64,000 bases of DNA, taken from positions 39,246,001 to 39,310,000 of the forward strand of contig JBNRSN020000033.1 of NCBI GenBank assembly GCA_051313645.2, given 5' to 3'. Below the pieces are notes generated by a model. The model ran no database searches. It saw only the letters and a program-made list of their open reading frames with translations, and was not told the origin of the DNA. Both the position numbers and the translations under genes were made by a program. The DNA comes from Centroscyllium fabricii. Lineage: Eukaryota. Positions 6,123-58,700 of the stretch are shown in pieces; position 1 is the first letter of the stretch; every line of letters begins with the position of its first letter.

Positions 6123-6723
6123 TAGTTATAAAAATGTGATGGGGCCGAGGTTATGATCTGAAATTGTTGAACTCGATGTTTAGTCCAGAGGGCTGTAGAG
6201 TGCCTCAGCGAAAGATGAGTTGCTGTTCCTCGCGTTTACGCTGAGCTTCCGTGCTCCTTTTGCCTTGAATATTTCTTAATGCCTCTTTACTTCTCCGGCC
6301 TTCCATCCTATCACAGACCTTCTCTTTTGTTCTTTCATCCCTTCCCCCATTCCCCAGCCCCTAAACTTGCTTTAAAATCTTTTCCTTTTCCTGCTTTTCT
6401 CCAGCTCTGACGAAAGCTCTTCGACCTGAAACGTGTGATGAACCTTTTGGGGTGGTTCACACTGTACGGTTATTGTATATAGTTTTGTTTAATGTGTTTG
6501 TTATATATCTGTTAATATCTGTACCTTTCTGTAAGGACCTGTACCGGCTGGCCTTGCCTCTGGGTACTAGTATAAAGGAGAATGCTCCGCCCACTTATCT
6601 CTCATTCCGGGCAGGCTCATCGGGGACTCGGTTCAGTTTCTTGTTAATAAAAGCCACTTATTTAAGAACTCGCTGCCGTCTTTGATTTGAGACATCTCAA
6701 TTTTATTAACAAGAATTTTTAAA

Positions 6724-8109
6724 ATGAGCCAGCAACAGCCAGCAACATCTGAGAGTTGGAAGACAATTCTAAAACCAGAAACTCTCGACCTCAACCCCCA
6801 GGCACCGAACGCGTCGAATGATTTTGAACACTGGCTGAGCTGCTTCGAGTCGTACCTTGTCGTGGCCGGAGTCAGCGACGCGCACAAGAGAAGAGACCTG
6901 GTCTCCTGTGTGAGTGGCAGAGTGTAATCCATACTTAAGAGCGCCACGGAATACAATGCAGCGATGGAGCTACTGAAGGCTCGATATCTCCAGCCAGTCA
7001 ATGCAGTCTATGCTCGCCATCTACCTGCCACGCGGAGGCAACAGCATGGTGAGTCGAATGAAGAGTACCTGGAGGCTCTTCAAGCTCTTGTTCTGTACGG
7101 CGGATGTGCCCCTGTTAACACCCAGGAGCACATGGACCTCCTCGTCCGCGATGCCTACGTGGCAGGCATCAGATCGGCCCCAGCCCGCACCCGCCTGCTC
7201 GAGCAGGATAATTTATCCCTAAATGAGGCGGTGAAGCTTTCCAACGCGGTGGATGGGGCCCTCCGGAGCCTAGAGTTGAACACGGGGCACGGCTCCCACG
7301 CAGTTTCCCCTGGGCCTTGGGACTCGTGTTCGACGCCCTCGACGGCGACCGTGGCGGCCACAACGCCATCTAGACAGCCAGCGCCTCCGAAATGCTTTTT
7401 TTGCGGCCAGAAACGCCATCCACGAAGCTCCTGCCCAGCGAAGGCGTCTTCCTGCTCCAGATGTGGCAAGAAGGGCCATTTTGCAAAGGTCTGCCGATCG
7501 GCCCCGGAATTAGCTTGGAAAGGTGTGGCGGCCAGCGATGTCCACACCACAGAGTGGCCTCAGGTACCTAGCGCCCCCCAACAGCGACCCTCGCAGCAAT
7601 CGCAGCCCTCACAGAACTCTCTGAAATCGCGGCCCTCGCAACAATCGCTACAGCGGCCCTCTGAACAACTACCACCTATCTTGCCTCAGATGCGGCCTGC
7701 CAACATCGTTTCCCGCGCTCCGCCATCTTTGGGGGCGCGGGCATATTCTTCATCATTCGTTTCCTGCGCTCAGCCATCTTTGGGGGCATGGGCACATTCT
7801 TCTTCGCCGATTCAGCGCAAAACGCAGGCGCCGTCGGGGATCCTGGCAGCAGCGGCAGAGCACAGGGCGCCGCCATCTTTTTTGCGGGCAACTCGCATCC
7901 TGGCAGCAGCGGCCCCGCCCTATCACATGACGCCGCCATCTTGGATGCGGGCAACTCGCCTCCTGGCAGCAACGGCCCCGCCCCAGCCCAGGGCGCCGCC
8001 ATCTTTGTTTAAGGCAAGCTTATCGACGCAGGCAGCAGCAGCAACAGGCAGCTCTGGAGAAACTCAAATGATCTTGGCAGCAGCCACAGGCAACTCAAGG
8101 GCAATTTAG
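6724..8109 (+). pseudogene. gag: Gypsy gag with two Zn knuckles, in-frame stop at about 6925
   Basis: CFFCGQKRHPRSSC and CSRCGKKGHFAKVC; ORFs at 6724 and 6964 are in the same frame. Confidence 0.85.
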
Positions 8110-8220
8110 CATTCTGGTGCTTGTGCGCCACGAGCCCTTCGGTCCTCCCAACGGCCTGAAACGCCACCGCGGCCCGCCGCGTGCGAATCACGGGCGCCGC
8201 CATCGCTCGCGGACCCTGCA

Positions 8221-11200
8221 TTGCACAAGGGCCCAAGCGCGCACACCACACTTGCCTCTACGGCCCTCAACCAGTCTCTCATGTCATCGATGATGCCCAT
8301 CCGGGTAGAGGGGCACCTCACCCGATGTCTGTTCGACACTGGGAGTAAGGAGGGCTTCATATACCCTGATACAGTGCGCCGTTATTCCCTCAGGGTTAGG
8401 CCCACACATCGTAAAATCTCCCTCGCCTCCGAGTCCCAGACTGTGGACGTCATCGGCTGCTGTACAGTCACTATTACCGCGAAGGGGACGACATACCGCA
8501 ACTTTCAACTGTACGTCCTCCCACAGCTCTGCGCCTGTGTTGCTTGGCCTGGACTTCCAGTGCAATCTGCAGAGCATGACGATGGCATACGGCGGTCCCC
8601 TGCCTCTTCTCACGGTCAGCAGCTGCGACTGCCCTGCCTCACAACCACACTCCTCTTGCGGTCTGTCGACCTTGAAGATAGACCACCCCTCACTGTTCAC
8701 AAACCTTGACCCTGACTGCAAGCTCATTGCAACCAAGAGTCGGCGATACAGCGCGGTGGACCGTACCTTTATCAAGGCAGAGGTTGCTCGGTTGTTGCGG
8801 GAGGGCATCATCGAGGCCAGTAACAGCCCGTGGCGGGCCCAGGTGGTGGTGGTTAAGTCTGGCGACAAACAGCGCATGGTCATCGACTATAGTCAGACCA
8901 TTAACTGTTACACTGGGCTCGACGCTTATCCGCTTCCTAGAATCAATAACATGGTCAATCAGATTGCCCAGTATAAGGTCTTCTCCACCATCGACCTTAA
9001 GTCGGCCTATCACCAGCTCCCCATCAGAGCTGAGGACCGTAAATACACTGCCTTCGAGGCAAATGGGCGCCTTTTTCACTTCCTCCGGGTCCCCTTTGGG
9101 GTTACCAACGGAGTTTCGGTCTTCCAATGAGAGATGGACAGAATGGTTGACCAGTATGATTTGCAGGCCACATTCCCGTATTTGGACAATGTCACGATCT
9201 GCGGCCATGACCAGCAAGATCATGATGCCAATTTGGACAGGTTTCTCCGTACGGCCCAGCGTCTGAACCTCACTTACAATGAGGATAAGTGCGTTTTCAA
9301 CACTAACCGGTTGGCTATCCTCGGCTACGTGGTTGAGAACGGGGTCCTCGGCCCCGATCCCGAATGTATGCGCCCCCTTCAGGAGCTGCCCCTACTGCAC
9401 TCCCCCAAAGCTTTGAGGAGATGCCTGGGGTTTTTCTCTTACTATGCACAATGGGTTCCCCATTATGCTGATAAGGCCTGGCCTCTCCTCAGGGTTACCT
9501 CCTTCCCGCTCCCGTTAGAGGCCCAAATAGCTTTATCTCAAATCAAGTAAGACATCATCAAGGCTACCATGCACGCCATTGATGAGTCTCTCCCCTTCCA
9601 GGTCGAAAGCGACGCCTCCGACTTCGCCCTGGCCACCACCCTTAACCAGGCAGGCAGGCCCATTGCTTTCTTCTCCCGTACCCTGCAGGGCCCTGAAGTC
9701 CGCCACACTTCAGTGGAAAAGGAGGCCCAAGCAATCGTGGAAGCAATGCGCCACTGGCACCACTATTTGGCCGGTAAACGATTTACCCTTCTTACTGACC
9801 AGCGATCAGTAGCGTTTATGTTCCACCATAAACAGAGGGGTAAAATCAAGAATGACAAGATCCTCAGGTGGCGGATCGAACTCTCCGCTTTTGAGTACGA
9901 CATCCTGTACCGGCCAGGGAAGCTTAACGATCCCCCGGACGCCCTGTCCCGAGGAACGTGTGCCAGCGCCCAGTCGGGTAGTCTGAACACCCTCCACGCT
10001 AATCTCTGCCACCCGGTGGTCACCAGGCTCGCTCACTTCGTCAAATCACGCAATCTCCCTTATTCCATTGCGGAGATCAAGGCGATGACGCAGGAGTGCC
10101 CTGTCTGTGCTGAGTGCAAGCCCCAGTTTTACAGGCCTGACAGGGCGCACCTCATCAAGGCCACCCGCCCATTCAAGCACCTGAGTGTGGACTTCAAAGG
10201 TCCCCTCCCCTCTACCAACCGTAACTCGTACATTCTCACTGTGGTCGACGAGTTCTCCCGTTTCCCTTTTGCATTCCCATGCCCAGATATGACGAGTGCA
10301 ACATTGATAAAGCATTTTATCACGCTATTCGCCATTTTCGGCCTCCCCGGCTTCGTACACAGCGACCGGGGGTCCTCATTTATGAGTGACGAACTGCGTC
10401 ATTTTCTGCTCGTGAGGGGGGTTGCCTCGAGCGAACGACCAGTTACAACCTCCGGGAGAACGGGCAGGTAGAACGTTATAATGGGACCATCTGGAAGGCC
10501 ATCACCCTGGCCCTTCGATCCAAAGGCCTTCCAACCTCCCACTGGCAGGAGGTCCTCCAGGATTCGCTCCACGCTACCCGCTCCCTCTTGTGCACAGCCA
10601 CCGCCCACCGGTTGCACACCTCACGAGAAACTCTTCTCTTTCCCCAGGAAATCGACTTCGGGGACGTCTCTGCCAACGTGGCTTACCAACCCGGGGCCGG
10701 TTTTGCTTAGAAGGCATGTCCGTGGACACAAGACGGACCCTCTTGTTGAACGTGTGCGCCTGCTGTATGCCAACACTCAGTATGCCTACGTGGCGTACCC
10801 AGACGGGCGTGAGGATACCGTCTCGATTAGAGACCTTTCGCCCACTGGAGACGTTCACTCTGAGTCATTGGCGGAGCCCTTGCCCTCCCAGGTCACATTT
10901 TCACAACAGGGGCTGTCCTTTCATTCACCTGCGCTCACTACATCGGGGCCCTCGTCACTCCCAATGCACGACGGAGCTCATCATGTTGCTCAGCCTACTC
11001 TTCCGGCAACTGCTACACCTCCACCAGATCTTCCTGTGCCTGAGGTACCTCTTCCACCGGTGGAGTCTCTGTTCACGTCGGGAGCCCTGTCAGCGTCTTT
11101 TCCGATTACGACTACTCCCGCTTCTTCGCCAGAACCGATACTACCTCGCCGATCTGATCGGACTGTTAAACCTCCACAAAGACTTATAACACAGTGCTGA
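8221..11200 (+). pseudogene. pol: Gypsy pol (protease, RT, RNase H, integrase) with stops and frameshifts
   Basis: LFDTGS; PFGVTNG, YLDN; SDASD, EKEA, TDQ; VDFKGP, HSDRGS. Confidence 0.92.
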
Positions 11201-11659
11201 TATTTGCCCCGCGGGACTTGTTTTTAAGGAAGGGGTGAATATGATGAACCTTTTGGGGTGGTTCACACTGTACGGTTATTGTATATAGTTCTGTTTAATG
11301 TGTTTGTTATATATCTGTACCTTTCTGTAAGGACCTGTACCGGCTGACCCTGCCTCTGGGTACTAGTATAAAGGAGAATGCTCCGCCCACTTATCTCTTA
11401 TTCCGGGCGGGCTCATCGGGGACACGGTTCTGTTCCTTGTGAATAAAAGCCACTTATTTAAGAACTCGCTGCCGTCTTTGATTTGAGGCATCTCAAAACG
11501 TTAACTCTGTTTCTCTCTCCATGGGTGCTGCCCTGGCCTGCTGAGCTTGTCCAGCGTTTTCTGTTGTTGTTTCACATCAAATTTATCTTTGTTACATACA
11601 TCTTATATTAACAGTCTTGAGTCCATCACACATACAAACCATATATTTTTATTCTTACA

Positions 11660-11770: not shown

Positions 11771-12309
11771 ACATTAATTTTATAAGCTCCAGGGTCAGGT
11801 ACAAGGCGGACCTCCCTCGATCTCCGCAAGCTCCTATTGTACCAGTTCCATTATTCACACACTGGGGCTGGATTTTCATTGGGCCATGCAGTCGCGATTG
11901 GAGGTATGCCGGGGGTGGGGGGGGGGGTTAAAGTCTCGAAATCGGGGGTCCCGACCCCATCCCGCACCCAAACCCACCTCCGTGTCAATTTTAAAGGAGG
12001 CGGGCACCCGCCCCGCACTGGGAGCCGCCTCCCCGAGGCAGGAAGGGGTTAGTGCCAATTAATTGCCTGTTAACAAGTAGTTAGTGGGCAGTTTTTAGCC
12101 TAATCGTTATTTTTAATGCTGAACTGTGAGTTTCCCGACGGCTCCAAATCACGCCAAGTTAGAGGAGTCGGGCCGTTGGGTTGAAGGACTTGGAGGGGTC
12201 GAGGTGTCAGTGTTCAGGTGAGTGATGTGTGCATGAGTGCAAATGTGAGTGTGTTTGGTGTGTGTAAAGTGATTAAATAAGTTTAAATGACCTTTTCTTA
12301 CCTCAGCTC

Positions 12310-12930
12310 TTCCGACAGTGCAATGCTCCCTCAGTACTGCCCCTCCAACAGTGCAGCACTCCCTCAGTACTGCCCCTCCGACAGTGCGGCGCTCCCTCAG
12401 TACTGCCCCTCCGACAGTGCGGCACTCCCTCAGTACTGTCCCTCCAACAGTGCGGCGCTCCCTCAGTACTGCCCCTCCGACAATGCGGCGCTCCCTCAGT
12501 ACTGCTCCTCTGACAGTGCGGCACTCCCTCAGTACTGCCCCTCCGACAGTGCGGCACTCCCTCAGTACTGCCCCTCCGACAGTGCAGCGCTCCCTCAGTA
12601 CTGCCCCTCCGACAGTGCGGCACTCCCTCAGTACTGCCCCTCCGACAGTGCAGCGCTCCCTCAGTACTGCCCCTCCGACAGTGCGGCACTCCCTCAGTAC
12701 TGCCCCTCCGACAGTGCAGCGCTCCCTCAGTACTGCCCCTCCGACAGTGCGGCACTCCCTCAGTACTGCCCCTCCGACAGAGCAGCGCTCCCTCAGTACT
12801 GCCCCTCCGACAGTGCGGCACTCCCTCAGTACTGCCCCACCAACAGTGTGGCACCCCCTCAGTACTGCCCCTCCGACAGTGCGGCACTCCCTCAGTACGA
12901 CCCCTCCGACAGTGCGGCACTCCCTCAGTA
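12310..12930. repeat. 33-bp minisatellite, about 19 copies
   Basis: Unit CCCCTCCGACAGTGCGGCACTCCCTCAGTACTG; gives the 11-aa repeat ORF (PSDSAALPQYC)n. Confidence 0.95.
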
Positions 12931-13040
12931 GTGCACTGGTATATTAGACTGGATTCTGTGCTCAAATCTCCGGAGTGGGAACTTGAACACACGACCTTCT
13001 GGCTCAAAGTTGCGAGTGCTACCCCCTGAGCTAAGCTGAT
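12931..13040 (-). mobile_element. tRNA-derived SINE head (Deu-SINE-like) running into the 33-bp array
   Basis: Minus strand GCTTAGCTCAGGGGGTAGCAC (A box) and GTTCAAGT (B box). Confidence 0.65.
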
Positions 13041-19744: not shown

Positions 19745-20046
19745 TGTGGTAAACCACAATACTGTTTACCACTGTGTTATCTACTGTTGTATATAGTTAC
19801 CTGTTACACTACTGTTTACTACCATGTTAGTTAATGTTGCACATAGTTACTTGTAATACCGTTCGCCACCTCGGTGGACTCGGTCAGCTCTGGCTCCACC
19901 CGCATGATGAGTATAAAGGCAGCTGCTTGCTGGCCTTCTCCATTTTCTCCAGGACTCGACTGTGGAAGGAGCCGGGCTCAGTTCTCTGCTAATAAAAGCC
20001 TTCGTTGTACCTCAACCAGTCTTTGAGTATAATTGATCATGCATCA
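19745..20046 (+). mobile_element. Solo LTR
   Basis: TGTGGTAAAC...GCATCA, TATAAA and AATAAA inside, TSD CTCAC. Confidence 0.85.
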
Positions 20047-27747: not shown

Positions 27748-28445
27748 TGTGGTAAACCTGTAATACTGTTTTCCCACTGATGTACTGTGCTGCATATAGT
27801 TACCTCTTGGTTGCCTCTTGTCCCACCTGTATCTACCTGGGATGTCTCGGTCGGCTCCACCTCCTGGCTCCACCCACAGGCTGTGGTATAAAGGTGGCAG
27901 CCCTGCTGACCTCATGGCATTCCAGGACCAGATAGTGATAAGACCTGCACTCCAGTTCTTTGTTAATAAAAGCCTTGGAAACATTCTTTCTGAATTTAAC
28001 CTGTCTGACAGGCCTGGACAGGTTAAATTCAGAAAGAATGTTTCCAATAGCGGGGGAGTCCAGAACCAGGGGCCACAGTCTAAGGATAAGGGGTAAACCA
28101 TTTAGGACCGATATGAGGAAGAATTTCTTCACCCAGAGAGTGGTGAGCCTGTGGAATTCCTTGCCACAGAGGGCAGTGGAGGCCAGTTCATTAAATATAT
28201 TTAAGAGGGAATTGGATATATTTCTTCAGGCTAAAGCGATTAAGGGTTACGGCGATAAGGCGGGGACGGGGTACTGAACTGGAAAGATCAGCCATGATCT
28301 CAGCCAAACATCAGCCATGATCTCATTGAATGGCGGAGCAGGCTCGAAGGGCCGAATGGCCTACTCCTGCTCCTATCTTCTATGTTTCTATGTTTCTATG
28401 TTAATTACCTAACTCTACCGTTTAGCTGTAATTGATCGTGCATCG
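27748..28445 (+). mobile_element. Solo LTR containing a CR1 fragment (about 27976-28402)
   Basis: TGTGGTAAAC...GCATCG, TSD CATAT; same family as 19745-20046. Confidence 0.8.
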
Positions 28446-40394: not shown

Positions 40395-42672
40395 AAGCAT
40401 ATAATCATAGAAACATAGAAGATAGGAGCAGGAGTCGGCCATTCGGCCCCTCGAGCCTGTTCCCCCATTTAATGAGATCATGGCTGATCATCCAAACTCA
40501 GTACCCTGTCCCTGCCTTCTCCCCATATCCCTTGATCCCTTTAGCCTTAAGAAATATATCTAACTCCTTCTTGAATATATTTAATGAATTGGCCTCAACT
40601 ACATTCTGTGGTAGAGAATTCCACAGGTTCACCACTCTCTGGGTGAAGAAATTCCTCCTCATCTCTGTCCTAAATGGCTTACCGCTTACCCTTAGACTGT
40701 GACCCCTGGTTCTGGACTCCCCGACCATCGGGAACATCCTTCCTTCATCCAGTAACATCCCCTCTTATTCAAGCACTCCTCACAGCTCACCCCTTTAGAC
40801 AATCATTTCAGTCCAGAGCATTCCATGACTTATATACTGCTAACATTGCGGTCATGTTGAAAACAGGCTGGGTTGGCTGAAGTTGGTCAGATATATAAAT
40901 TAATTGGAAAAGTAATTGCCTGAATCCATGCAACAGGCTCTTAATGCAGTTAGGCCCCCAAAAAAACCATCTTATTCCATAGAAACATAGAAGATAGGAG
41001 CAGGAGTAGGCCATTCGGCCCCTCGAGCCTGCTCCGTCATTCGATGAGGTCATGACTGATCATCCAAACTCAGTACCCTGTACCTGCCTTCTCCCCATAT
41101 CGGTTGATACCTTTAGCTCTAAGAACTATATCTAACTCCTTCTTGAATATATTTAATGACCTGGCCTCAAATACATTCTGTGGTAGAGAATTCCACAGGT
41201 TCACCACTCTCTGGGTGAAGAAATTCTTCCTCATCTCTGTCCTAAATGGCTCACCCCTTATCCTTAGACTGTGAACCCTGGTTCTGGACTCTCCGACCAT
41301 TGACGTATCGTCAATTGTCTTAATAAAAGACTACACGAGTAGTGACCTTAACTATAGGCTTTTATTAACTTACTTTGGAGCTACCCTCCGAACGAACATC
41401 AGAACAGAATGAGGGAGCCCCGGTCAGTCCTCACCTATAAAGGCCTCACCTGGGGGAGGAGTTAGAGGTGTGGCTGACCTGGCTCCACGACAGTGTTACA
41501 AAGCGGTGTATCATACAAAGCCAATGTTGGCGACAATATTACAGTGGTAATCGTATATACAATATGGGTTACCACAACCATTGGGAACATTCTTCCTGCA
41601 TCTAGTTTGTCCAGAACTGTCAGAATTTTATAAGTTTCAATGAGATCCCCTCTCATTCTTCTAAACTCCAGCGAGTATAAGCCTAATCGACCCAATCTCT
41701 CCTCATACGTTATTCCTGCCATCCCAGGTATCAGTCTTGTGAACCTTCGCTGAACCCCTTCCATGGCAAGAACATCCTTTCTCAGATAAGGCGACCAAAA
41801 CTGCACACATTACTCAAGGTGTGGTCTCACCAAGGCCCTGTACAACTGCAGCAGGACATCCTTGTTCCTGTACTCAAACCCTTTCGCTATGAATGCCAAC
41901 ATTCTATTTGCCTTCTTCACCACCTGCTGCACCTGCATGCCCTACCTTTAGTGACCGGTGCACAAGAACACCCAGGTCTCGTTGCACTTCCCTGTCTCCC
42001 AATCTATTTCCATTCAGATAATAGTCTGCCTTTCTGTTTTTGACACCAAAGTGGATAACCTCGCATTTATCCACGTTATATTGCATCTGCCACGCTTCTG
42101 CCTAATCACCGAACCTGTCCAAATCATCCTGGAGTTTCTTGGTATCCTCCTCGCAGCACACACGCCCACCCAGCTTTGTGTCGTCTGCAAACTTGGAGAT
42201 ATTACATCTAGTAATGATTACGGGGAACGCTTGTAGAAACATAGAAACATAGAAGATAGGAGCAGGAGTAGGCCATTCGGCCCCTCAAGCCTGCTCCGCC
42301 ATTCAATGAGATCATGGCTGATCATCCGAATTCAGTACCCTGTCCCTGCCTTCTCCCCATATCCCTTGATCCCTTTAGGCTTAAGGAATATATCCAATTC
42401 TTTCTTGAATATATTTAATGGGTTGGCCTCCACCGCCCTCTGTGGTAGAGAATTCCACAGGTTCACCACTCTCTGGGTGAAGAAATTCCTCCTCATCTCG
42501 GTCTTAAATGGTTTACCCCTTATCCTTAGACTGTGACCCCTGGTTCTGGACTCCCCGGCCATTGGGAACATCCTTCCTGCATCCAGTCTGTCCAGCCCTG
42601 ACAGAATTTTATAGGTTTCGATGAGATCCCCTCTCAATCTTCTAAACTCCAGTGAGTATAAGCCCAATCGAC
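40395..42672 (-). mobile_element. Three CR1 3' fragments (about 40395-40752, 40978-42210, 42235-42672)
   Basis: Repeated RTRGHSLRIRG...FFTQRVVNLWNSLP, each with its own tail. Confidence 0.88.
41301..41576 (-). mobile_element. Solo LTR inside CR1
   Basis: Minus strand TGTGGTAACC...CGTCA, TATA-like and AATAAA motifs, TSD ACCAT. Confidence 0.85.
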
Positions 42673-43256: not shown

Positions 43257-46200
43257 TGTGGCGGCACGCCCACTGGGACATCGAATCCGCCACGGGAACT
43301 CCGCGGAGCAAAGCCCCGCTCATCCGGGTGACGCGATGACGTCACCAACCGCGGGACTGTTTAAATATGCCTGTTGCGAGTGGTTCACTCTCTTTCTTAT
43401 TTAGCTCTAGTGCATTAAAGTTGTGTTTTCTCTAGCTCTCTGGCTCACGTGTGGTTCCTAGGCCTTGCCGGCGCTACAGTGGTGACCCCGAATTGGAACG
43501 ACTTCCAAAGAAGAAAAGCTGCCGCAGGATCTGGGACCACCAGCCAAAGAACTTTTTAAACGGAAAACATGGCAAGAGCAAGGAACCTTGCTCCACGAAC
43601 GCAAGGACTTGGCCAGAACTTCGGACATGGACTAACTCTACCCGAGTTCTGGGAGCAACGGCCAGCGGCCTGGTTTATGTGCATCGAGACCAGCTGCCGC
43701 ACACATGGCATCAAGGGGGCCGACCGCTACGACTTGGTGTTCTCAGCCCTACCGCAATCGACGATCGATCGGATGTGGTCAAAAATACAGCGTGTGCCCA
43801 CTACAGGCAGGTACGAATCTCTTAAGGCCGCGCTCATATTTTTTTTTACCCCCTCTCAATTTGAGCGCGACTGCCAGCTCCTTGACCTCCCCGAACTCGG
43901 GGACACGGACCCATCGGACCTCTTAGGTCAGATGCAAGCACTTACACCCAATCCCGCCTCCCTGTTCCGCACTGTCTTCCTCCTTAAACTGCCCCGCTCC
44001 ATCAGACCGGCCTTGGCGGCCCTTGGCCAACGGAGCGAAGACGAGCTCGCAGAGGAAGCCGACAGGCTGATGGAGGCGCAGCGCACCCGCTCGATCACGT
44101 GCGACCCTAACTCCGCATCGGTAGAGTGCAGCCAATCACCCCCCAGGCCCAACTTTACGCCTGAACCTAGGGCCCCGCGCCCACCTAAACAACCGCGTCC
44201 CTCTAGCACCGGCTGGTGCTACTACCACACGCGGTTCGATAACAAAGCGCACCGCTGCGTCCAGCCATGCGCGTTCAAGCCACGGCCCAACTCAGCCCCC
44301 ACCATGTCTGTAGGCCACACAGGAGCACTGCTCTTTGTTACAGACAGAGGCACAGGCCTCAGGTTCCTCTGCGACACAGGCGCGCAGCACAGCATCGTGC
44401 CAGCCTCCCCTGCAGAAACCAAACAAGGCACCCGGGGCCCGCCACTAGCAGCAGCCAACGGCTCCAGTATTCAAACGTACGGCACCCGCAAGCTTACTAT
44501 TACACTTGCAAGCCACACGTACACCTGGGATTTCGTCACAGCCCAGGTCACCTCACCCATCCTCGGGGCAGATTTCCTCTGCGCCTACGGCCTACTGGTC
44601 GATGTGACCCGGCGCCGCTTGGTCAACATAAATAACATGACGACCATCCCATGCTCCACAGGGCCCGCACTCCTGGCCCACGCGGCAGCCCAATGCCGCT
44701 CACGGAACTCAGATGCCTACGGCACACTACTTGCAGAGTTCCCCGCCCTAACCAACCCCACGTTCACCGCCCGCCAGGCCAAACACGGGGTGGAACACTT
44801 TATAACGACCACAGGCCCTCCCGTCCATGCCCACGCCCGTAGGCTCGACCCGGCCAAGCAGGAGATCGCGCGCACCGAGTTCCGCACCATGGAGCAACTC
44901 AGCATTATCCGCCGCTCCAACAGCCCCTGGGCCTCCCCTCTCCACATAGCCCCCAAGCCAGACGGGGGTTGGCGCCCCTGCGGCGACTACCGCCGACTAA
45001 ACAACGCCACTACCCCGGATAGGTACCCCGTACCCCACATCCAGGATTTTTCCGCCAGATTAGCGGGCTGTACGATCTTTTCCAAGATCGACCTGGTGCG
45101 TGGCTACCACCAGGTTCCCGTGCACCCGGCGGACATCCCTAAAATGGCCGTTATCACACCCTTCGGGCTCTTCGAGTTCCTCAGGATGCCCTTCGGCCTT
45201 AAAAACGCGGCCCAGGCCTTCCAGCGCCTCATGGACTCGGTCCTACGGGACTTGAAGTTAATTTTCGTCTATTTAGACGACATCCTCGTGGCCAGCACCT
45301 CCCCCCAGGAACACCTCCTGCACCTCAGGACCCTGTTCCAGCGCCTGGCCGAACACAGCCTCATCTTAAGCCCCACCAAGTGCAAATTCGGCCTCGATAC
45401 TATTGACTTCCTCGGCCACCGCATTTCCCAAACAGGGGCCATACCCCTACCCTCCAAGGTGCAGGCGGTACAGGAATTCCCCCGCCCGCACTCCATTAAA
45501 GGGCTGCAGTAATTACTAGGCATGGTTAATTTTTATAACCGCTTTATCCCGGGAGCAGCCGCTCTCATGGCCCCCTTATACCAGGCCACCCGCGGGCAGT
45601 CCAACAAGGCTGCGGTCGAGTGGACGGCCGACGCCGCCACCGCCTTCACCGCAACTAAAACCGCCCTGGCAAATGCCACCCTCCTAGCCCACCCTAGGCC
45701 CAACGCCAGAGTAGCCCTCACCACCGACGCCTCCGACCATGCGGTCGGGGCCGTATTTGAGCAGTGGACCGGCAACTCGTGGCAGCCCCTGGCCTTTTTC
45801 AGCCGGCAACTCCGGCCCCCAGAGGTTAAATACAGCGCCTTCGATAGGGAGCTCCTCGCTCTCCATCTGGCAGTGCGACACTTTTGTTTCCTCTTGGAGG
45901 GCCGCCACTTCACAGCCTTCGTTGACCATAAGCCACTCATGTTTGCGATGGCTAAGGTCGCCGAACCCTGGTCGGCCAGGCAGCAGCGCCAACTCGCGGC
46001 CGTGTCGGAATTTACAACCGACATCCAACACATATCCGGCCACGACAACGTGGTCGCTGACTGCCTCTCACGCCCCACCATTAACGCCGCCCAAATGGCG
46101 GTCGATTACGCCCAGCTGGCCGCAGACCAGCTGGCCGACCCCGACCTGCTCAACGCAGCAGCAAATCTCCCCGGCCTCCACTTGGCCAATATCGTGCACG

Positions 46201-47673
46201 GCCCCGCTGCCACCGTCGTCTGCTGCGACATATCCCTGCCGCAGCCCAGGCCCGTCGTACCCCACGCTTGGAGGCGACACATATTCAGGACCCTCCATGA
46301 CCTGTCCCACCCCGGCACCCGCGCGTCCATCAAATTAATCTCGGCCCGGTTCGTATGGCGCGGCCTGCGCAAGGACGTTCGCGCCTGGGCCAGCTCCTGC
46401 ATTGCCTGCCAGCGCTCCAAAGTGCATAAGCACATCAGGGCACCGCTGGAGACTTTTAAAGTGCCGGCCAGACGCTTTGACCACGTCCATATCGATCTCG
46501 TCGGGCCACTACCGCCATCTCTGGGCCACACGCACCTAATGACCATGGTCGACCGCAACACTCGCTGGCCAGAAGCAGTCCCCCTCACCGCCACCGGCAC
46601 CACGGACTTGGCCAGGGCGTTCATCGCCACCTGGGTCGCCCGCGTCGGCGTGCCCAGAGACATCACCTCCGACAGAGGACCCCAGTTTACGTCGGCATTA
46701 TGGGCGGCCATCGCCCGCGACCTCGGGGTGACACTACATCGAACCACCGCATACCACCCACAAGCGAACGGGCTTTGCGAACGGTTCCACCGCTCAATGA
46801 AGGCATCACTACGAGCCACACTCAAGGACGCGTCGTGGACCGACCGCCTTCCATGGGTTCTCCTCGGGCTGCGCTCGGCAGTCAAGGAAGACCTAAACGC
46901 CTCGGCAGCAGAACTCGTCTACGGCCAAACATTAACAGTGCCGGGCGAGTTCCTAGCTGAGCCCAACGCTCCCTGGTCAGCCGACCAGTATTTAAAAGAC
47001 TTCGGCAACCTGGCACGAGCTTTCCAGCCACTACCAGTGGCCCGGCATGGAGAGCCGGCAGCTCGGGTGCCGGACGGCATCAAAAACGCTAAATTCGTGT
47101 TCGTCCGGCGCGACGGACACCGATCTCCACTACAGCCACCGTACGATGGCCCCTACAGAGTGCTTCGGGCGGGAGCTAAAGCTTTTGAACTACACATGGG
47201 CAATAGAACTGAAACGGTGACAAGCCGGCACACGTTATAGCGGGTGAGACAACGGTCCCCGCACAACCACCACAACGCGGTCGCCCTCCTGCAACAAAAC
47301 CCGCCCACACTCCACCGCAGAACCAGAAGCAACATGCAACACGGTCCGGCTGCATCATCGGGCCACCCCAACAGCACACATAGACTCTGTTACTATTCCT
47401 TCCGGACGGATTCTGGGGGGAGCTGTGTGGCGGCACGCCCACTGGGACATCGAATCCGCCACGGGAACTCCGCGGAGCAAAGCCCCGCTGATCCGGGTGA
47501 CGTGACGACGTCACCACGTCTGCCGACGCGATGACGTCACCAACCGCAGGACTGTTTAAATATGCCTGTTGCGAGTGGTTCACTCTCTTTCTTGTTTAGC
47601 TCTAGTGCATTAAAGTTGCGTTTTCTCTAGCTCTCTGGCTCACGTGTGGTTCCTAGGCCTTGCCGGCGCTACA
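43257..47673 (+). mobile_element. Near-intact CsRn1-like Gypsy LTR retrotransposon
   Basis: LTRs 43257-43478 and 47426-47673, TSD ATAT, PBS TGGTGACCCCGA (tRNA-Trp), PPT GGGGGGAG, CHCC gag motif. Confidence 0.95.
43569..47240 (+). pseudogene. Single gag-pol ORF with one in-frame stop (45510-45512) and a terminal frameshift
   Basis: [18 protein letters not shown]; LCDTGA; [12 protein letters not shown]; TDAS, DHKPL; HIDLVGP, TSDRG, ERFHR; YDGPY. Confidence 0.92.
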
Positions 47674-48354: not shown

Positions 48355-49588
48355 GGCGAAAAATTCATCAGCGCACGGATTGGGCGCTAAATTTGCCGAT
48401 GTGCTAAAATTTAGCGCCTGCGCTAAATTAGCGCTGAGGCGGCCGATATTGGCGCTAGCGCCGCCATTGCAGAATTCGGCGCTAATTCACGTCTGCACGG
48501 CTTCCAGGCGGCCCATATGCTGCCGCTAATTGCCGTTCCCGGGTGCAGCGCTCCCTCACTCACTGTTTGCTTCCCCATGACCTCTGCAGCCGATTAGGCC
48601 TTAAAGGGGAAGCAGAGCAGCATTTTTTCCTCCCCGCTCTCTGATCATCTGCTAACCGCGGGCCATCAGCAGTCGCGGCCATCCCTCCCCCCCTCCGTGC
48701 TCTCCGATCAGCAGTCGCGGCCATCCCCTCCCCCCTCCCCGCTCTCCGATCAAAAGTCGCGGCCATCCCTCCCCCCTCCCCGCTGTCCGATTAGCAGTCG
48801 CGGCCATCCCCTCCCCCCTCCCCGCTGTCCGATTAGCAGTCGCGGCCATCCCCTCCCCCCCTCCGTGCTCTCCGATCAGCAGTCGCGGCCATCCCCTCCC
48901 CCCTCCCCCGCTCTCCGATTAGAAGTCGCGGCCATCCCTCCCCCCCTCCCCGCTCTCCGATTAGCAGTCGCGGCCATCCCTCCCCGCTCTCCAATCTCCG
49001 ATCAGCAGTCGCGGCCATCCCTCCCCCCCTCCCTGCTCTCCGATTAGCAGTCGCGGCCATCCCTCCCCCCCTCCCCGCTCTCCAATCTCCGATCAGCAGT
49101 CGCGGCCATCCCTCCCCCCCTCCCCCTCTCCCCCTCTCCCCCCTCCCCACTCTCCGATCAGCAGTCGCGGCCATCCCTCCCCCCTTCTCCCCTCCCCGCT
49201 CTCCGATTAGCAGCCGATCTCCTCCCCTCCTCCCCGCTCTCCGATCAACCGGCCCATTGGGACGCCTCCCCCGCTCTCTGAGCAACTGGCCGATCTCGGG
49301 CTGAAGAGGGAGGGTGGCCCTTTTAGTAGCGCGGCAGCGGCCACTCAAACCCACTGCAGCGCTTGCAAAAGCTGGCGGTGATAGCGCAGGGGGCGGTGGA
49401 AAGGCGCTAAACCCAATATCGGGCGCAGCCCGCCGGGCGGGCATTGCACACGCATTTTCATGATGATCGGTAATTGCCAGGTAGCACAGCACTAACATTT
49501 AGCGCCGGCGCTAACCTCTAGGCCAATTTAACGCCCGGCGCGATTTTCGGTGCTAATGGGCCGGTGCTAAGGCTCCAATTTCGTGGCC
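48355..49588. mobile_element. GC-rich MITE (family B related) with internal minisatellite
   Basis: GGGCGAAAAATT...AATTTCGTGGCC ends; GGCGCTAA motifs. Confidence 0.65.
48660..49245. repeat. About 41-bp C-rich minisatellite
   Basis: Unit approximately CTCTCCGATCAGCAGTCGCGGCCATCCCTCCCCCCCTCCCCG, roughly a dozen copies. Confidence 0.9.
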
Positions 49589-55798: not shown

Positions 55799-58700
55799 AT
55801 AGAAACATAGAAGATCGGAGCAGGAGTTGGCCATTCGGCCCCTTGAGCCTGCTCTGCCATTCAATGAGATCATGGCTGATCATTCAATTTCAGTACCCTG
55901 TCCCTGCCTTCTCCCCATATCCCTTGATCGCTTTAGCCTCAAGAAATATATCCAATACTTTCTTGAATATATTTAATAAATTAGCCTCTACTGCCTTCTG
56001 TGGTGGAGAATTCCACAGGTTCACCACTCTCTGGGTGAAGAAATTCCTCCTCATCTCTGTCCTAAATGGCTTACCCCTTATCCTTAGACAGTGACCCCTG
56101 GTTCTGGACTCACCGACCATCGGGAATATCCTTCCTGCATCTAGTCTGTCCAGTCCTGTTGGAATATCATATTGTAGAGGCATGCAGGCCTGAAGAACCA
56201 CGCTGGACACAGAGGATTCGGAAAACAATCATTTAATGTTAACACAACTATGGCCAGGTAGCAAAGAGACTGAGCCACCTGGAACCAAGGTATTTAAAGG
56301 ACCCGCGGTTGGTGACATCACTGCCGGGTGTCCACCTGGCGACGTCATCACGCCGGAAGACGCGGTGACGTCATCACGCCGCCCAGCGGGCGGGGCCATC
56401 TCGCAGTACTCCCGAGGCGGATTCGATGGTCCTGGTGGGCGTGTCGCCACACAGCTCCCCCCCAGAATCTGCGAGGGAGAGCAGAGTTTAACCTAAAGTA
56501 GAAAGGAGCATAAAGAAAAATAAAAAAATGGAGCATAAAAATTGAGTCTCAGGCGAGGCGTTGAGGTGGCCTGATGATGCGGCCAGCACGTGTCGTGCGC
56601 TGCTCCTTGTTCTGCGTGGGAGTGTGGGCGGGCTTTGGTGCGGTAGGGCGTCCGCGTTTTGGTGGCTGCGCGGGGACTGTTGTCTCGCCCGCCATTACGT
56701 GTGCCGGTTTGAGCCGGTCGATTGAGACAGTCTCAGCTCTGTTGCCCATTTTTATCTGGAACGTTTTAGGTCCCGCCCAAAGCACTCTGTACGGTCCGTC
56801 GTACGGTGGCTGTAGTGGTGTTCGATGTGCGTCGTGGCGGACAAACACATACTTGGCATTCTCGATGCCATCAGGAACACGTGCTGCCGGCTCTCCGTGC
56901 CAGGCCACCGGAAGTGGTTTGAACACCGCTGCCTGGTTATTGAACTCCTTGAGGCAGCGGTCGGCTGACCAGGGTTCGTTGGTGTCCGCGACGAACTCGC
57001 CCGGTACGGTTAGGGGTTGGCCATACACGAGTTCCGCCGCTGAGGCATGCAGGTCTTCTTTGGCCGCTGAACGCAGGCCGAGCATTACCCAGGGCAGGCG
57101 GTCGGTCCAGGTCGCGTCCTTAAGGCTGGCCCGTATTGAAGCTTTGATGGAGCGATGGAACCTCTCGCGCACAGAAAGTTGGCCCCGAGTAGGGGTATTT
57201 TGACTTGGGCTGTGATAAAGTCCCACTTGTATGTGTGGCCTGCCAGCTTGATGGTAAGCTGGCGAGTGCCGAACGTAACTATCTCGGAGCCGTTTGTGGC
57301 TTCAAGTGGTGGGCCTTGGGTGCGTTGCTTGGTTTCTGCCGGGGAGGCTGGCAATATGCTGTGCTGCGCGCCTGTGTCGCAGAGGAAGCGGAGGCCTGAG
57401 CCACTGTCCGTGACGAAGAGCAGTCCTCCAGAGCGGCCTACGGACATGGTGGGGCTTGGGCTGGTTTGGGGTTTGAAGGTGCAGGGCTGGACGCAGCGCT
57501 GCGCTTTGTTTTCAAACCTGGTGTGATAGTAGCACCAGCCGCGGCCTGTGGTGCGTGGCTTTTTACGGGTACGCACTGGCCTGGGTTCGGACTTGGGGCC
57601 GGACCTGGGGTGCGCGTAGTACTGCTCCGGTGGAGCAGTAGTGGGTTGGCACGTGGCGGCTCGGGTGCGCTCGGCCCTCATCAGCTTGTCGGCCTCCTCA
57701 GCCAGTTGCTCTTTGGTGTAGTGATCAAGGATCGTCAGAGCCGGTCTGACGGAGGGAGGCAGTTTGAGGAGGAACAAGGCGCGCTTAATGGTGGCCGGGT
57801 CACAATTGAGCGCTTCCATTTGGGCCCAGAGGTCCGATGGGTCTGCGTCCCCGAGCTCGGGGAGGTTAATGAGCTGGCAGTCGCGCTCGAATTGGGTGGG
57901 GGTGAATTTTTTTAGCAGCGCGGCCTTAAGCGATTCGTACCTGCCAGCAGTTGGTTCGTGCTGTATCAATGACCACATTCGGTCGACCGTGGTCAGTGAA
58001 AGGGCCGCGAAGAGCAGGCTGTATCGATCGTCCCCCTGTACGCCATGGATGCGGTAGGTGTTCTCTGTGCTGAGGAACCAGGCCGCTGGACGTAGTTCCC
58101 AGAACTCTGGCAAGTTTGGAATTTGCCCGTAGTTCTGGCCCAGTCTGTGGAGTCGTGCTGTTTGGCTCCCTGCTGGCATGGTGGTTGTGATTCAACTGAG
58201 GCAGCTTGGCCCTCAGTCCTGCAGCAACTGCTTCATTATGTTCCCTTGGAATTCGTTCCAAGTATCGAGGTCACCACTGTAGAGCATGCAGGCCTGAAGA
58301 ACCACGCTGGACACAGAGGATTCGGAAAACAATCATTTAATGTTAACACAACTATGGCCAGGTAGCAAAAGAGAGTGAGCCACCTGGAACCAAGGTATTT
58401 AAAGGACCCACGGTTGGTGACGTCACTGCCGGGTGTCCACCTGGCGACGTCATCACGCCGGAAGTCGCGGTGACATCATCACACCGCCCGGCGGGCTAGG
58501 CCGTCTCGCAGTACTCCCGAGGCGGATTCGATGGTCCTGGTGGGCGTGTCGCCACAATATGTGTTCAATTAGATCCCATCTCATTCTTCTGAACTCCAGT
58601 GAGTAGAAGCCCAATCGACCCAATCTCTCCTCATACGTCATTCCTGCCATCCCAGGTATCAGCCTGGTGAATCTTCGCTGCACCCCCTCCATGGCAAGAA

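Follow-up and report, generated by a model that had tools for sequence, protein, structure and literature searches.

The focal element and its surroundings

The window, by which we mean the whole 64,000-nucleotide stretch that was analyzed, contains at 6434-11495 a decayed Ty3/Gypsy retrotransposon that lacks a chromodomain (the focal element; Table 1). Its TG...CA LTRs, target duplication, and polypurine tract are those of an LTR retrotransposon of this group, and the order of its coding domains (protease-RT-RNase H-integrase) fits the same assignment. As stated in an earlier note made from these letters alone, there is no visible chromodomain: the Chromo domain had no match in the ORFs of the window or in five long relatives. 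Rfam gave no matches at E values up to 5 within 6300-6900, so no known ribozyme lies there. The RT motif at 9179-9190 is YLDN, and metagenome relatives of the clade vary at this motif (YLDN, YMDN, YVDN, YLDD).

The earlier note drew attention to the junction between the 5' LTR and the internal sequence. It placed there, one base past the LTR end at 6699, a site exactly complementary to a segment of the LTR, where a TGG of the tRNA type would be expected. In the focal copy this is correct in every respect: 6701-6715 pairs with 6638-6652 at 15 of 15 positions, the spacer is an A, and no TGG follows the 5' LTR. TATAAA, which the note put about 65 nt upstream of the LTR arm, lies 67 nt before 6638. 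Two mismatches reported at this site in the 3' LTR are indeed present, but they are subfamily alleles and not decay. Single insertions with LTRs of different subfamily alleles include, besides the focal one (6434-6699 versus 11240-11495), the elements at L316 and L388, and suggest that strands were transferred between two packaged genomes or that gene conversion took place.

Table 1. Coordinates of the focal element, its priming features, and other LTRs of the clade in the window
Feature	Position	Strand	Remarks
Left target-site duplication, 5 bp	6429..6433	.	Repeat at 11496-11500
5' LTR, 266 bp, TG...CA	6434..6699	+	
TATA box (TATAAA)	6571..6576	+	67 nt upstream of 6638
Putative transcription start (Inr-like A at 6604), also the putative primer 5' end	6603..6606	+	TATA/Inr prediction and inverted-copy stops
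Putative self-primer, about 49 nt, likely capped	6604..6652	+	Suggested by aberrant insertions
LTR arm of the 13-bp stem	6640..6652	+	AATAAA inside at 6646-6651
Candidate cut site, +/-1 nt	6652..6653	+	LTR pieces interpreted as minus-strand strong-stop DNA begin here
One-base spacer (A), LTR end to primer site	6700	+	
Primer binding site	6701..6713	+	Pairs with 6640-6652; focal copy 15/15 out to 6715
gag, disrupted by stops at 6925-6927 and 8107-8109	6724..8109	+	Weak PNMA and zinc-knuckle matches, below Pfam cut-offs
pol: protease, RT (YLDN motif), RNase H, integrase	8110..11200	+	Stops and frameshifts; no chromodomain
Polypurine tract	11226..11239	+	
3' LTR	11240..11495	+	Versus 5' LTR: 11 substitutions and a 10-bp deletion, several being subfamily alleles
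Solo LTR, second family of the clade	19745..20046	+	5-bp target duplication
Cut-off LTR, third family of the clade	27748..27975	+	Ends past the poly(A) signal
Solo LTR, fourth family of the clade	41301..41576	-	5-bp target duplication

Three further LTRs in the window belong to other families of the same clade. Of the two that had previously been described as solo LTRs, the one at 19745 is a true solo LTR, whereas that at 27748 is an LTR cut off past its poly(A) signal. The RT of the clade was also found in 5 of 16 ten-kilobase loci selected for another element. The clade may represent a sizeable share of the 7.2-Gb genome. The window also contains a 33-nt tandem array (12306-12934) and a tandem array with units of 41-45 nt (48641-49234).

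Conservation and covariation of the stem

A pattern describing the junction matched 172,814 times across the genome, compared with 406 matches for the reversed control pattern. Inspected by eye, all 30 copies of the focal family have the primer site and 25 have a perfect 13-bp stem; a TGG primer site occurs in none of the 30. The pairing of 15 bases noted previously holds for the focal copy but not at the level of the family, whose stem measures 13 bp. At position 6639, 22 of 65 LTRs have C and 41 have T although the opposite base remains A, so this position varies freely. In contrast to this position, 6645 changes together with its partner, as the G allele seen in the 5' LTR of 3 of 40 family copies is matched by C in the primer site in all three.

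The same correspondence holds in other families. Among hits for relatives of two further LTR families, 5 of 30 and 3 of 30 are 5' LTRs, and of these eight, six pair at 13 of 13 positions and two have one mismatch. The earlier note had remarked on similar segments in the LTRs at 19745 and 27748, and full-length relatives of both carry primer sites of their own, which match their own arms even though these arms differ from that of the focal element.

Compensatory covariation among full-length relatives, which had been proposed as a check, was found both within this genome and in metagenome relatives (see below). In a set of 100 copies chosen for pairs 1-7, taken from the initial 3.3 Mb of a single contig and including many near relatives, pair 8 is paired in 91 copies (shuffle mean 38.5, maximum 52), pair 9 in 99 (shuffle mean 54.9), pair 11 in 100 (shuffle 90.5), pair 12 in 95 (shuffle 50.2), and pair 13 in 95 (shuffle 66.2), with pair 10 near-invariant and hence uninformative. 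Pairing falls from 95 of 100 at pair 13 to 42 of 100 at pair 14, and reaches the shuffle level further out. Overall, 79 of the 100 copies pair at 13 of 13 positions and 97 have at most one mismatch, and there are 18 different perfect six-base haplotypes among them.

A second pattern was blind to the primer site; it matched 98,556 times, and the 100 matches listed were examined by eye. Of these, 58 fit AATAAA, 34 fit ATTAAA, and eight are single variants; none of the 100 has a TGG. The LTR arm itself keeps AATAAA or ATTAAA in 92 of the 100 listed copies. When 20 blind-pattern copies were retrieved, a primer site of the ATTAAA type faced ATTAAA in its own LTR in 15 of 16, and the four odd ones among the 20 are point changes in the primer site. 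The distance from TATA to the end of the stem is also constrained (79-86 nt in 87 of the 89 clade copies with a TATA-like motif).

In predicted folds, the stem has a mean pair probability above 0.8 in 32 of 37 cases (0.89 for the focal element), and the inner helices, inspected for the three-duplex "pretzel" of the Tf1 type, are predicted to differ between families. Many families also have a small predicted hairpin 3-6 nt upstream of the stem, and it might halt plus-strand copying after 13 bases. A three-way comparison of 66 elements (396 sites) found 13 sites differing only in the primer site, 11 only in the 3' LTR, and two only in the 5' LTR, numbers that are too small and a pattern that proximity on the DNA also explains. 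Linkage between segments of the LTR, analyzed in 61 copies, gave no location for the point of strand transfer.

Relatives beyond this genome and phylogeny

The closest named proteins come from sharks and rays, with homologues also present among insects and crustaceans and in one spider and one nematode; no relatives were found in viral contigs. Protein search of metagenomes recovered 80 loci, of which 39 (19 of them from one assembly) have enough upstream DNA for evaluation. At least 11 of 12 bases pair behind CA plus one base in 35 of these 39, compared with 0.8% of 780 control scans, and the stem was not seen in the remaining four. By eye, there are about 20 different arms among these relatives. 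Several keep the stem without a canonical hexamer, and two of these elements have a canonical signal in the loop. The pairing thus outlasts its overlap with the poly(A) signal, and concealment of that signal is not its sole role. The hairpin that the earlier note envisaged as hiding the 5' poly(A) signal is, therefore, best kept as a plausible second role in this genome.

In trees of RT-RNase H, the clade sits on its own long branch (100/100), with chromoviruses elsewhere (100/100). Its nearest neighbors are elements that we take to be Mag-like (support 90/83, in a tree that is unrooted and lacks a Tf1 sequence); all group labels in the tree other than chromovirus, this one included, are our own assignments by motif. 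Placement of the RT in a Gypsy phylogeny, as had been suggested, gives in the best tree a branch separate from chromoviruses, but the AU test does not reject joining the two (p-AU 0.14). Based on these sequences, an origin independent of chromoviruses is likely. It should be noted that the YLDN RT hits inside five chromodomain loci were rejected as parts of the same element, because they belong to neighboring elements.

Aberrant insertions

An inverted copy of the LTR behind the primer site was first met in one of 100 clade copies. A pattern for this junction found 105 copies in the focal family and 371 on the forward strand in a larger family (reverse-strand hits of the larger-family pattern were counted several times, and the forward strand was used). 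Relative to the blind-pattern count, the frequency is about 1 in 100.

We examined 35 of the 105 focal-family copies. The inverted copy ends at the exact LTR start in 11, at 6603-6606 in eight, at 6610-6629 in four, in U3 at five loci (four events), and in the polypurine tract or pol in seven. Half of the 16 internal stops thus cluster in four positions out of 192 (p about 4e-10 if stops were uniformly distributed), and the junction sequences of these eight copies differ. Position 6604 is an Inr-like A, and had been predicted as the start site from TATA and Inr before the inverted-copy data. In the larger family (44 distinct loci listed, by eye), 10 of the 21 internal stops are no more than 2 nt away from the Inr A (p about 3e-7). 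Of nine stops that fall on that A itself, six have C as the next base, which hints at a copied cap and no more.

None of the 35 inverted copies runs through into host flank, and a 5-bp target duplication is present in 7 of the 11 copies that end at the LTR start (those in which the left end is readable). Integrase thus inserted the inverted copies as cDNA. Some insertions (L419, L421, L423, L427, L462, L463, L469, L472, and L474) are palindromic mini-elements, roughly 280-510 bp long, that consist either of LTR pieces alone or of these plus a fragment of gag. They have two integrase ends as well as target duplications, and could be taken for MITEs in annotation.

LTR pieces that begin at 6652 were found in nine insertions (three of the 35 examined and six from a purpose-made pattern), seven of them joined to three gag sites via a five-base shared word. 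The A at 6652 is kept in all nine pieces, an A precedes the shared word at 6 of 20 gag sites, and the cut may thus lie one base within the stem. The pattern count of breaks at 6651-6653, six, does not exceed the counts in two control windows (7 and 13), although the control-window breaks look like small indels for the most part. The 6652 junctions may also be biased by the short word shared with gag. As a group, the aberrant insertions resemble fossilized intermediates of reverse transcription, formed on a capped 49-nt self-primer that had been cut at the poly(A) signal.

Proposed mechanism and alternatives

The focal element belongs to a large animal clade in which the primer site pairs with 13 bases of the LTR, and we think it probable that the first approximately 49 bases of the RNA prime reverse transcription. 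The RNA would start at about 6604, and 6640-6652 would pair with 6701-6713, 48 nt downstream, an arrangement possible in cis for the 5' LTR only. This pairing would also conceal the 5' poly(A) signal. By analogy with Tf1, the element's own RNase H would probably make the cut at 6652 (+/-1), leaving a 3' end on a capped 5' piece of about 49 nt. The capped piece would then prime a minus-strand strong-stop DNA of 47-48 nt, which would transfer to what remains of R at the 3' end. Plus-strand synthesis would copy the primer and normally retain 13 bases of it. If so, the primer site would be rewritten from the LTR in each cycle, and tight covariation would follow without selection on each change.

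In about 1 in 100 insertions, the whole primer copy would be retained and then mis-joined or folded back. Mis-joined to gag, it would give the stops at 6604; folded back on its own U3, the palindromic mini-elements; and annealed to the 3' LTR, the run into pol. What the sequences show is the stem together with its covariation, its constant position one base past the LTR, the lack of a tRNA site, and the aberrant insertions; the steps of the model are inferred from these.

The fraction of inverted copies that enter 3' internal sequence counts against a 5' self-primer, since it is also predicted by self-priming from the RNA 3' end, with the 3' LTR arm trimmed to the poly(A) signal. Seven of 35 go beyond U3 to reach the polypurine tract and pol, as a copied RNA 3' end would. 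Annealing of the primer copy to the 3' LTR would be expected to yield such long copies as well, and a primer from the 3' end gives no reason for the stops at 6603-6606 (8 of 16). Those stops could instead come from priming in trans, as a short capped LTR transcript serving as primer would end at 6604 too, but neither version accounts for the LTR pieces that begin at 6652, and the 5' arm lies just 48 nt from the primer site. We consider priming from the 3' end or in trans unlikely.

It is more doubtful still, indeed improbable, that the stem serves solely to hide the 5' poly(A) signal, with a host RNA or DNA priming elsewhere and the aberrant copies arising by DNA fold-back at the inverted repeat. 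The retention of AATAAA or ATTAAA in most arms would suit this, as would a partner outside the LTR, by which the 5' signal alone is concealed. However, the stem always begins one base past the LTR end, the position required of a primer, and no other primer site was seen. The stem persists in relatives whose hexamers are non-canonical, even where (in two) the canonical signal is in the loop. Chromosomal fold-back would enter host flank, and neither start-site stops nor target duplications would be expected from it.

Plain priming of the Tf1 type, with the true start at about 6636-6640 and the first 13-17 bases as primer, is the least probable of the alternatives: the Inr-like motif at 6633-6639 that suggests it occurs in the focal family and two solo-LTR families but is absent from most others, TATA is about 69 nt upstream of the arm rather than 29 nt as in chromoviruses of the same genome, and the inverted copies extend to 6603-6606. 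For this reason of poor conservation across families, the Inr-like motif beside the stem was rejected as the start site. Both concealment of the signal alone and plain Tf1 priming fit the data poorly.

Returning to the capped 5' self-primer, a more ambitious version seems to us somewhat better than an even bet. This holds that an animal-wide Gypsy clade, with more than 170,000 5' ends in this genome, has a second, independently evolved form of self-priming, in which one 13-bp helix would hide the 5' poly(A) signal, mark the cut, and bind the capped 49-nt primer. The LTR would rewrite the primer site in each cycle, and hundreds of failed insertions would preserve a trace of where the RNA starts, of where it is cut, and perhaps of the cap. 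All three are in this case read from DNA, and the model makes exact numbers available (cap at 6604, cut at 6652, and strong-stop DNA of 47-48 nt). If correct, the approach is transferable, in that failed insertions in a large genome can map the start site and both primer ends without RNA data.

Comparison with known systems

No description of this priming layout was found in the literature searched, a scope that excludes Repbase Reports, GyDB, Butler 2001, Levin's primary papers, and a Tf1 review. Nor is it described in the available parts of PMC3601003, PMC6317226, PMC5006619, PMC4600332, PMC5341516, PMC6238403, PMC8556966, PMC7175516, PMC10085805, PMC13524379, and PMC2774666.

Another Gypsy element of the window (43257-47673, forward strand) illustrates the usual arrangement within the same genome and superfamily: unlike in the focal element, a TGG primer site follows the LTR at a distance of one base. 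It encodes a DUF7041 gag and a near-open pol with one stop (45510-45512), and a second copy lies near 56500-58200 on the reverse strand.

The focal clade adjoins Mag-like elements in our tree, in which Cigr-1 is not represented. Cigr-1, whose clade of Ty3/Gypsy is known from Ciona, molluscs, and annelids, is listed under the Mag lineage in a supplement (PMC6238403). Two papers that treat the Cigr-1 clade make no mention of a PBS, primer binding, or self-priming. Self-priming has been predicted from LTR complementarity at the primer site for plant TAR/Houba copia elements and Tcn1 chromoviruses, according to the available part of PMC6317226. These are members of another superfamily or chromoviruses, and overlap with a poly(A) signal does not appear in the portion of the description at hand (PMC6317226).

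Experimental proof of self-priming exists for Tf1 only, and the trait is taken to characterize the Tf1/sushi group in the sections available of PMC10085805 and PMC7175516. The same sections report that the Tf1 transcript's initial 11 bases pair and that RNase H cuts between bases 11 and 12 (PMC7175516; PMC10085805). Chromoviruses of the genome studied here show this Tf1 layout, with 11 nt at the start site as judged from sequence: at the eight of 16 loci with resolved LTR ends, the stem is 11 nt and begins 29 nt past TATA and about 340 nt before AATAAA. These loci (L211-L226) are young sushi-type chromoviruses with LTRs up to 99.8% alike, and their 11-nt self-primer covaries between families; L217 and L222 are chromovirus tandem arrays.

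The focal clade resembles Tf1, Tf2, Tj1, and the Tf1/sushi chromoviruses in having no tRNA site, a primer site complementary to its own LTR, and the Ty3/Gypsy domain order. It differs from the Tf1/sushi group in lacking a chromodomain and in an RT on a separate, fully supported branch. Its paired bases lie 36 nt inside the putative transcript and end in the poly(A) signal. Its primer would be about 49 nt long with an unpaired 5' part, rather than the first approximately 11 bases of the transcript. The earlier note had raised a mode of self-priming distinct from that of Tf1, and the covariation, the fixed register at the LTR end, the lack of both TGG and chromodomain, the contrast with chromoviruses, and the aberrant insertions all support this.

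If true, a primer that is long, internal, and combined with a poly(A) signal, occurring in a clade that lacks a chromodomain, would widen the ways in which LTR elements start copying, and a very abundant clade could lie beyond control by tRNA fragments. What is new is the set of aberrant insertions of the focal family with an inverted LTR copy, which appear to mark the presumed primer ends. Our verdict is that the self-complementary primer site is real and conserved; that the proposed self-priming probably works like that of Tf1, while failing two features of the Tf1/sushi group; and that DNA evidence points to both ends of the primer.
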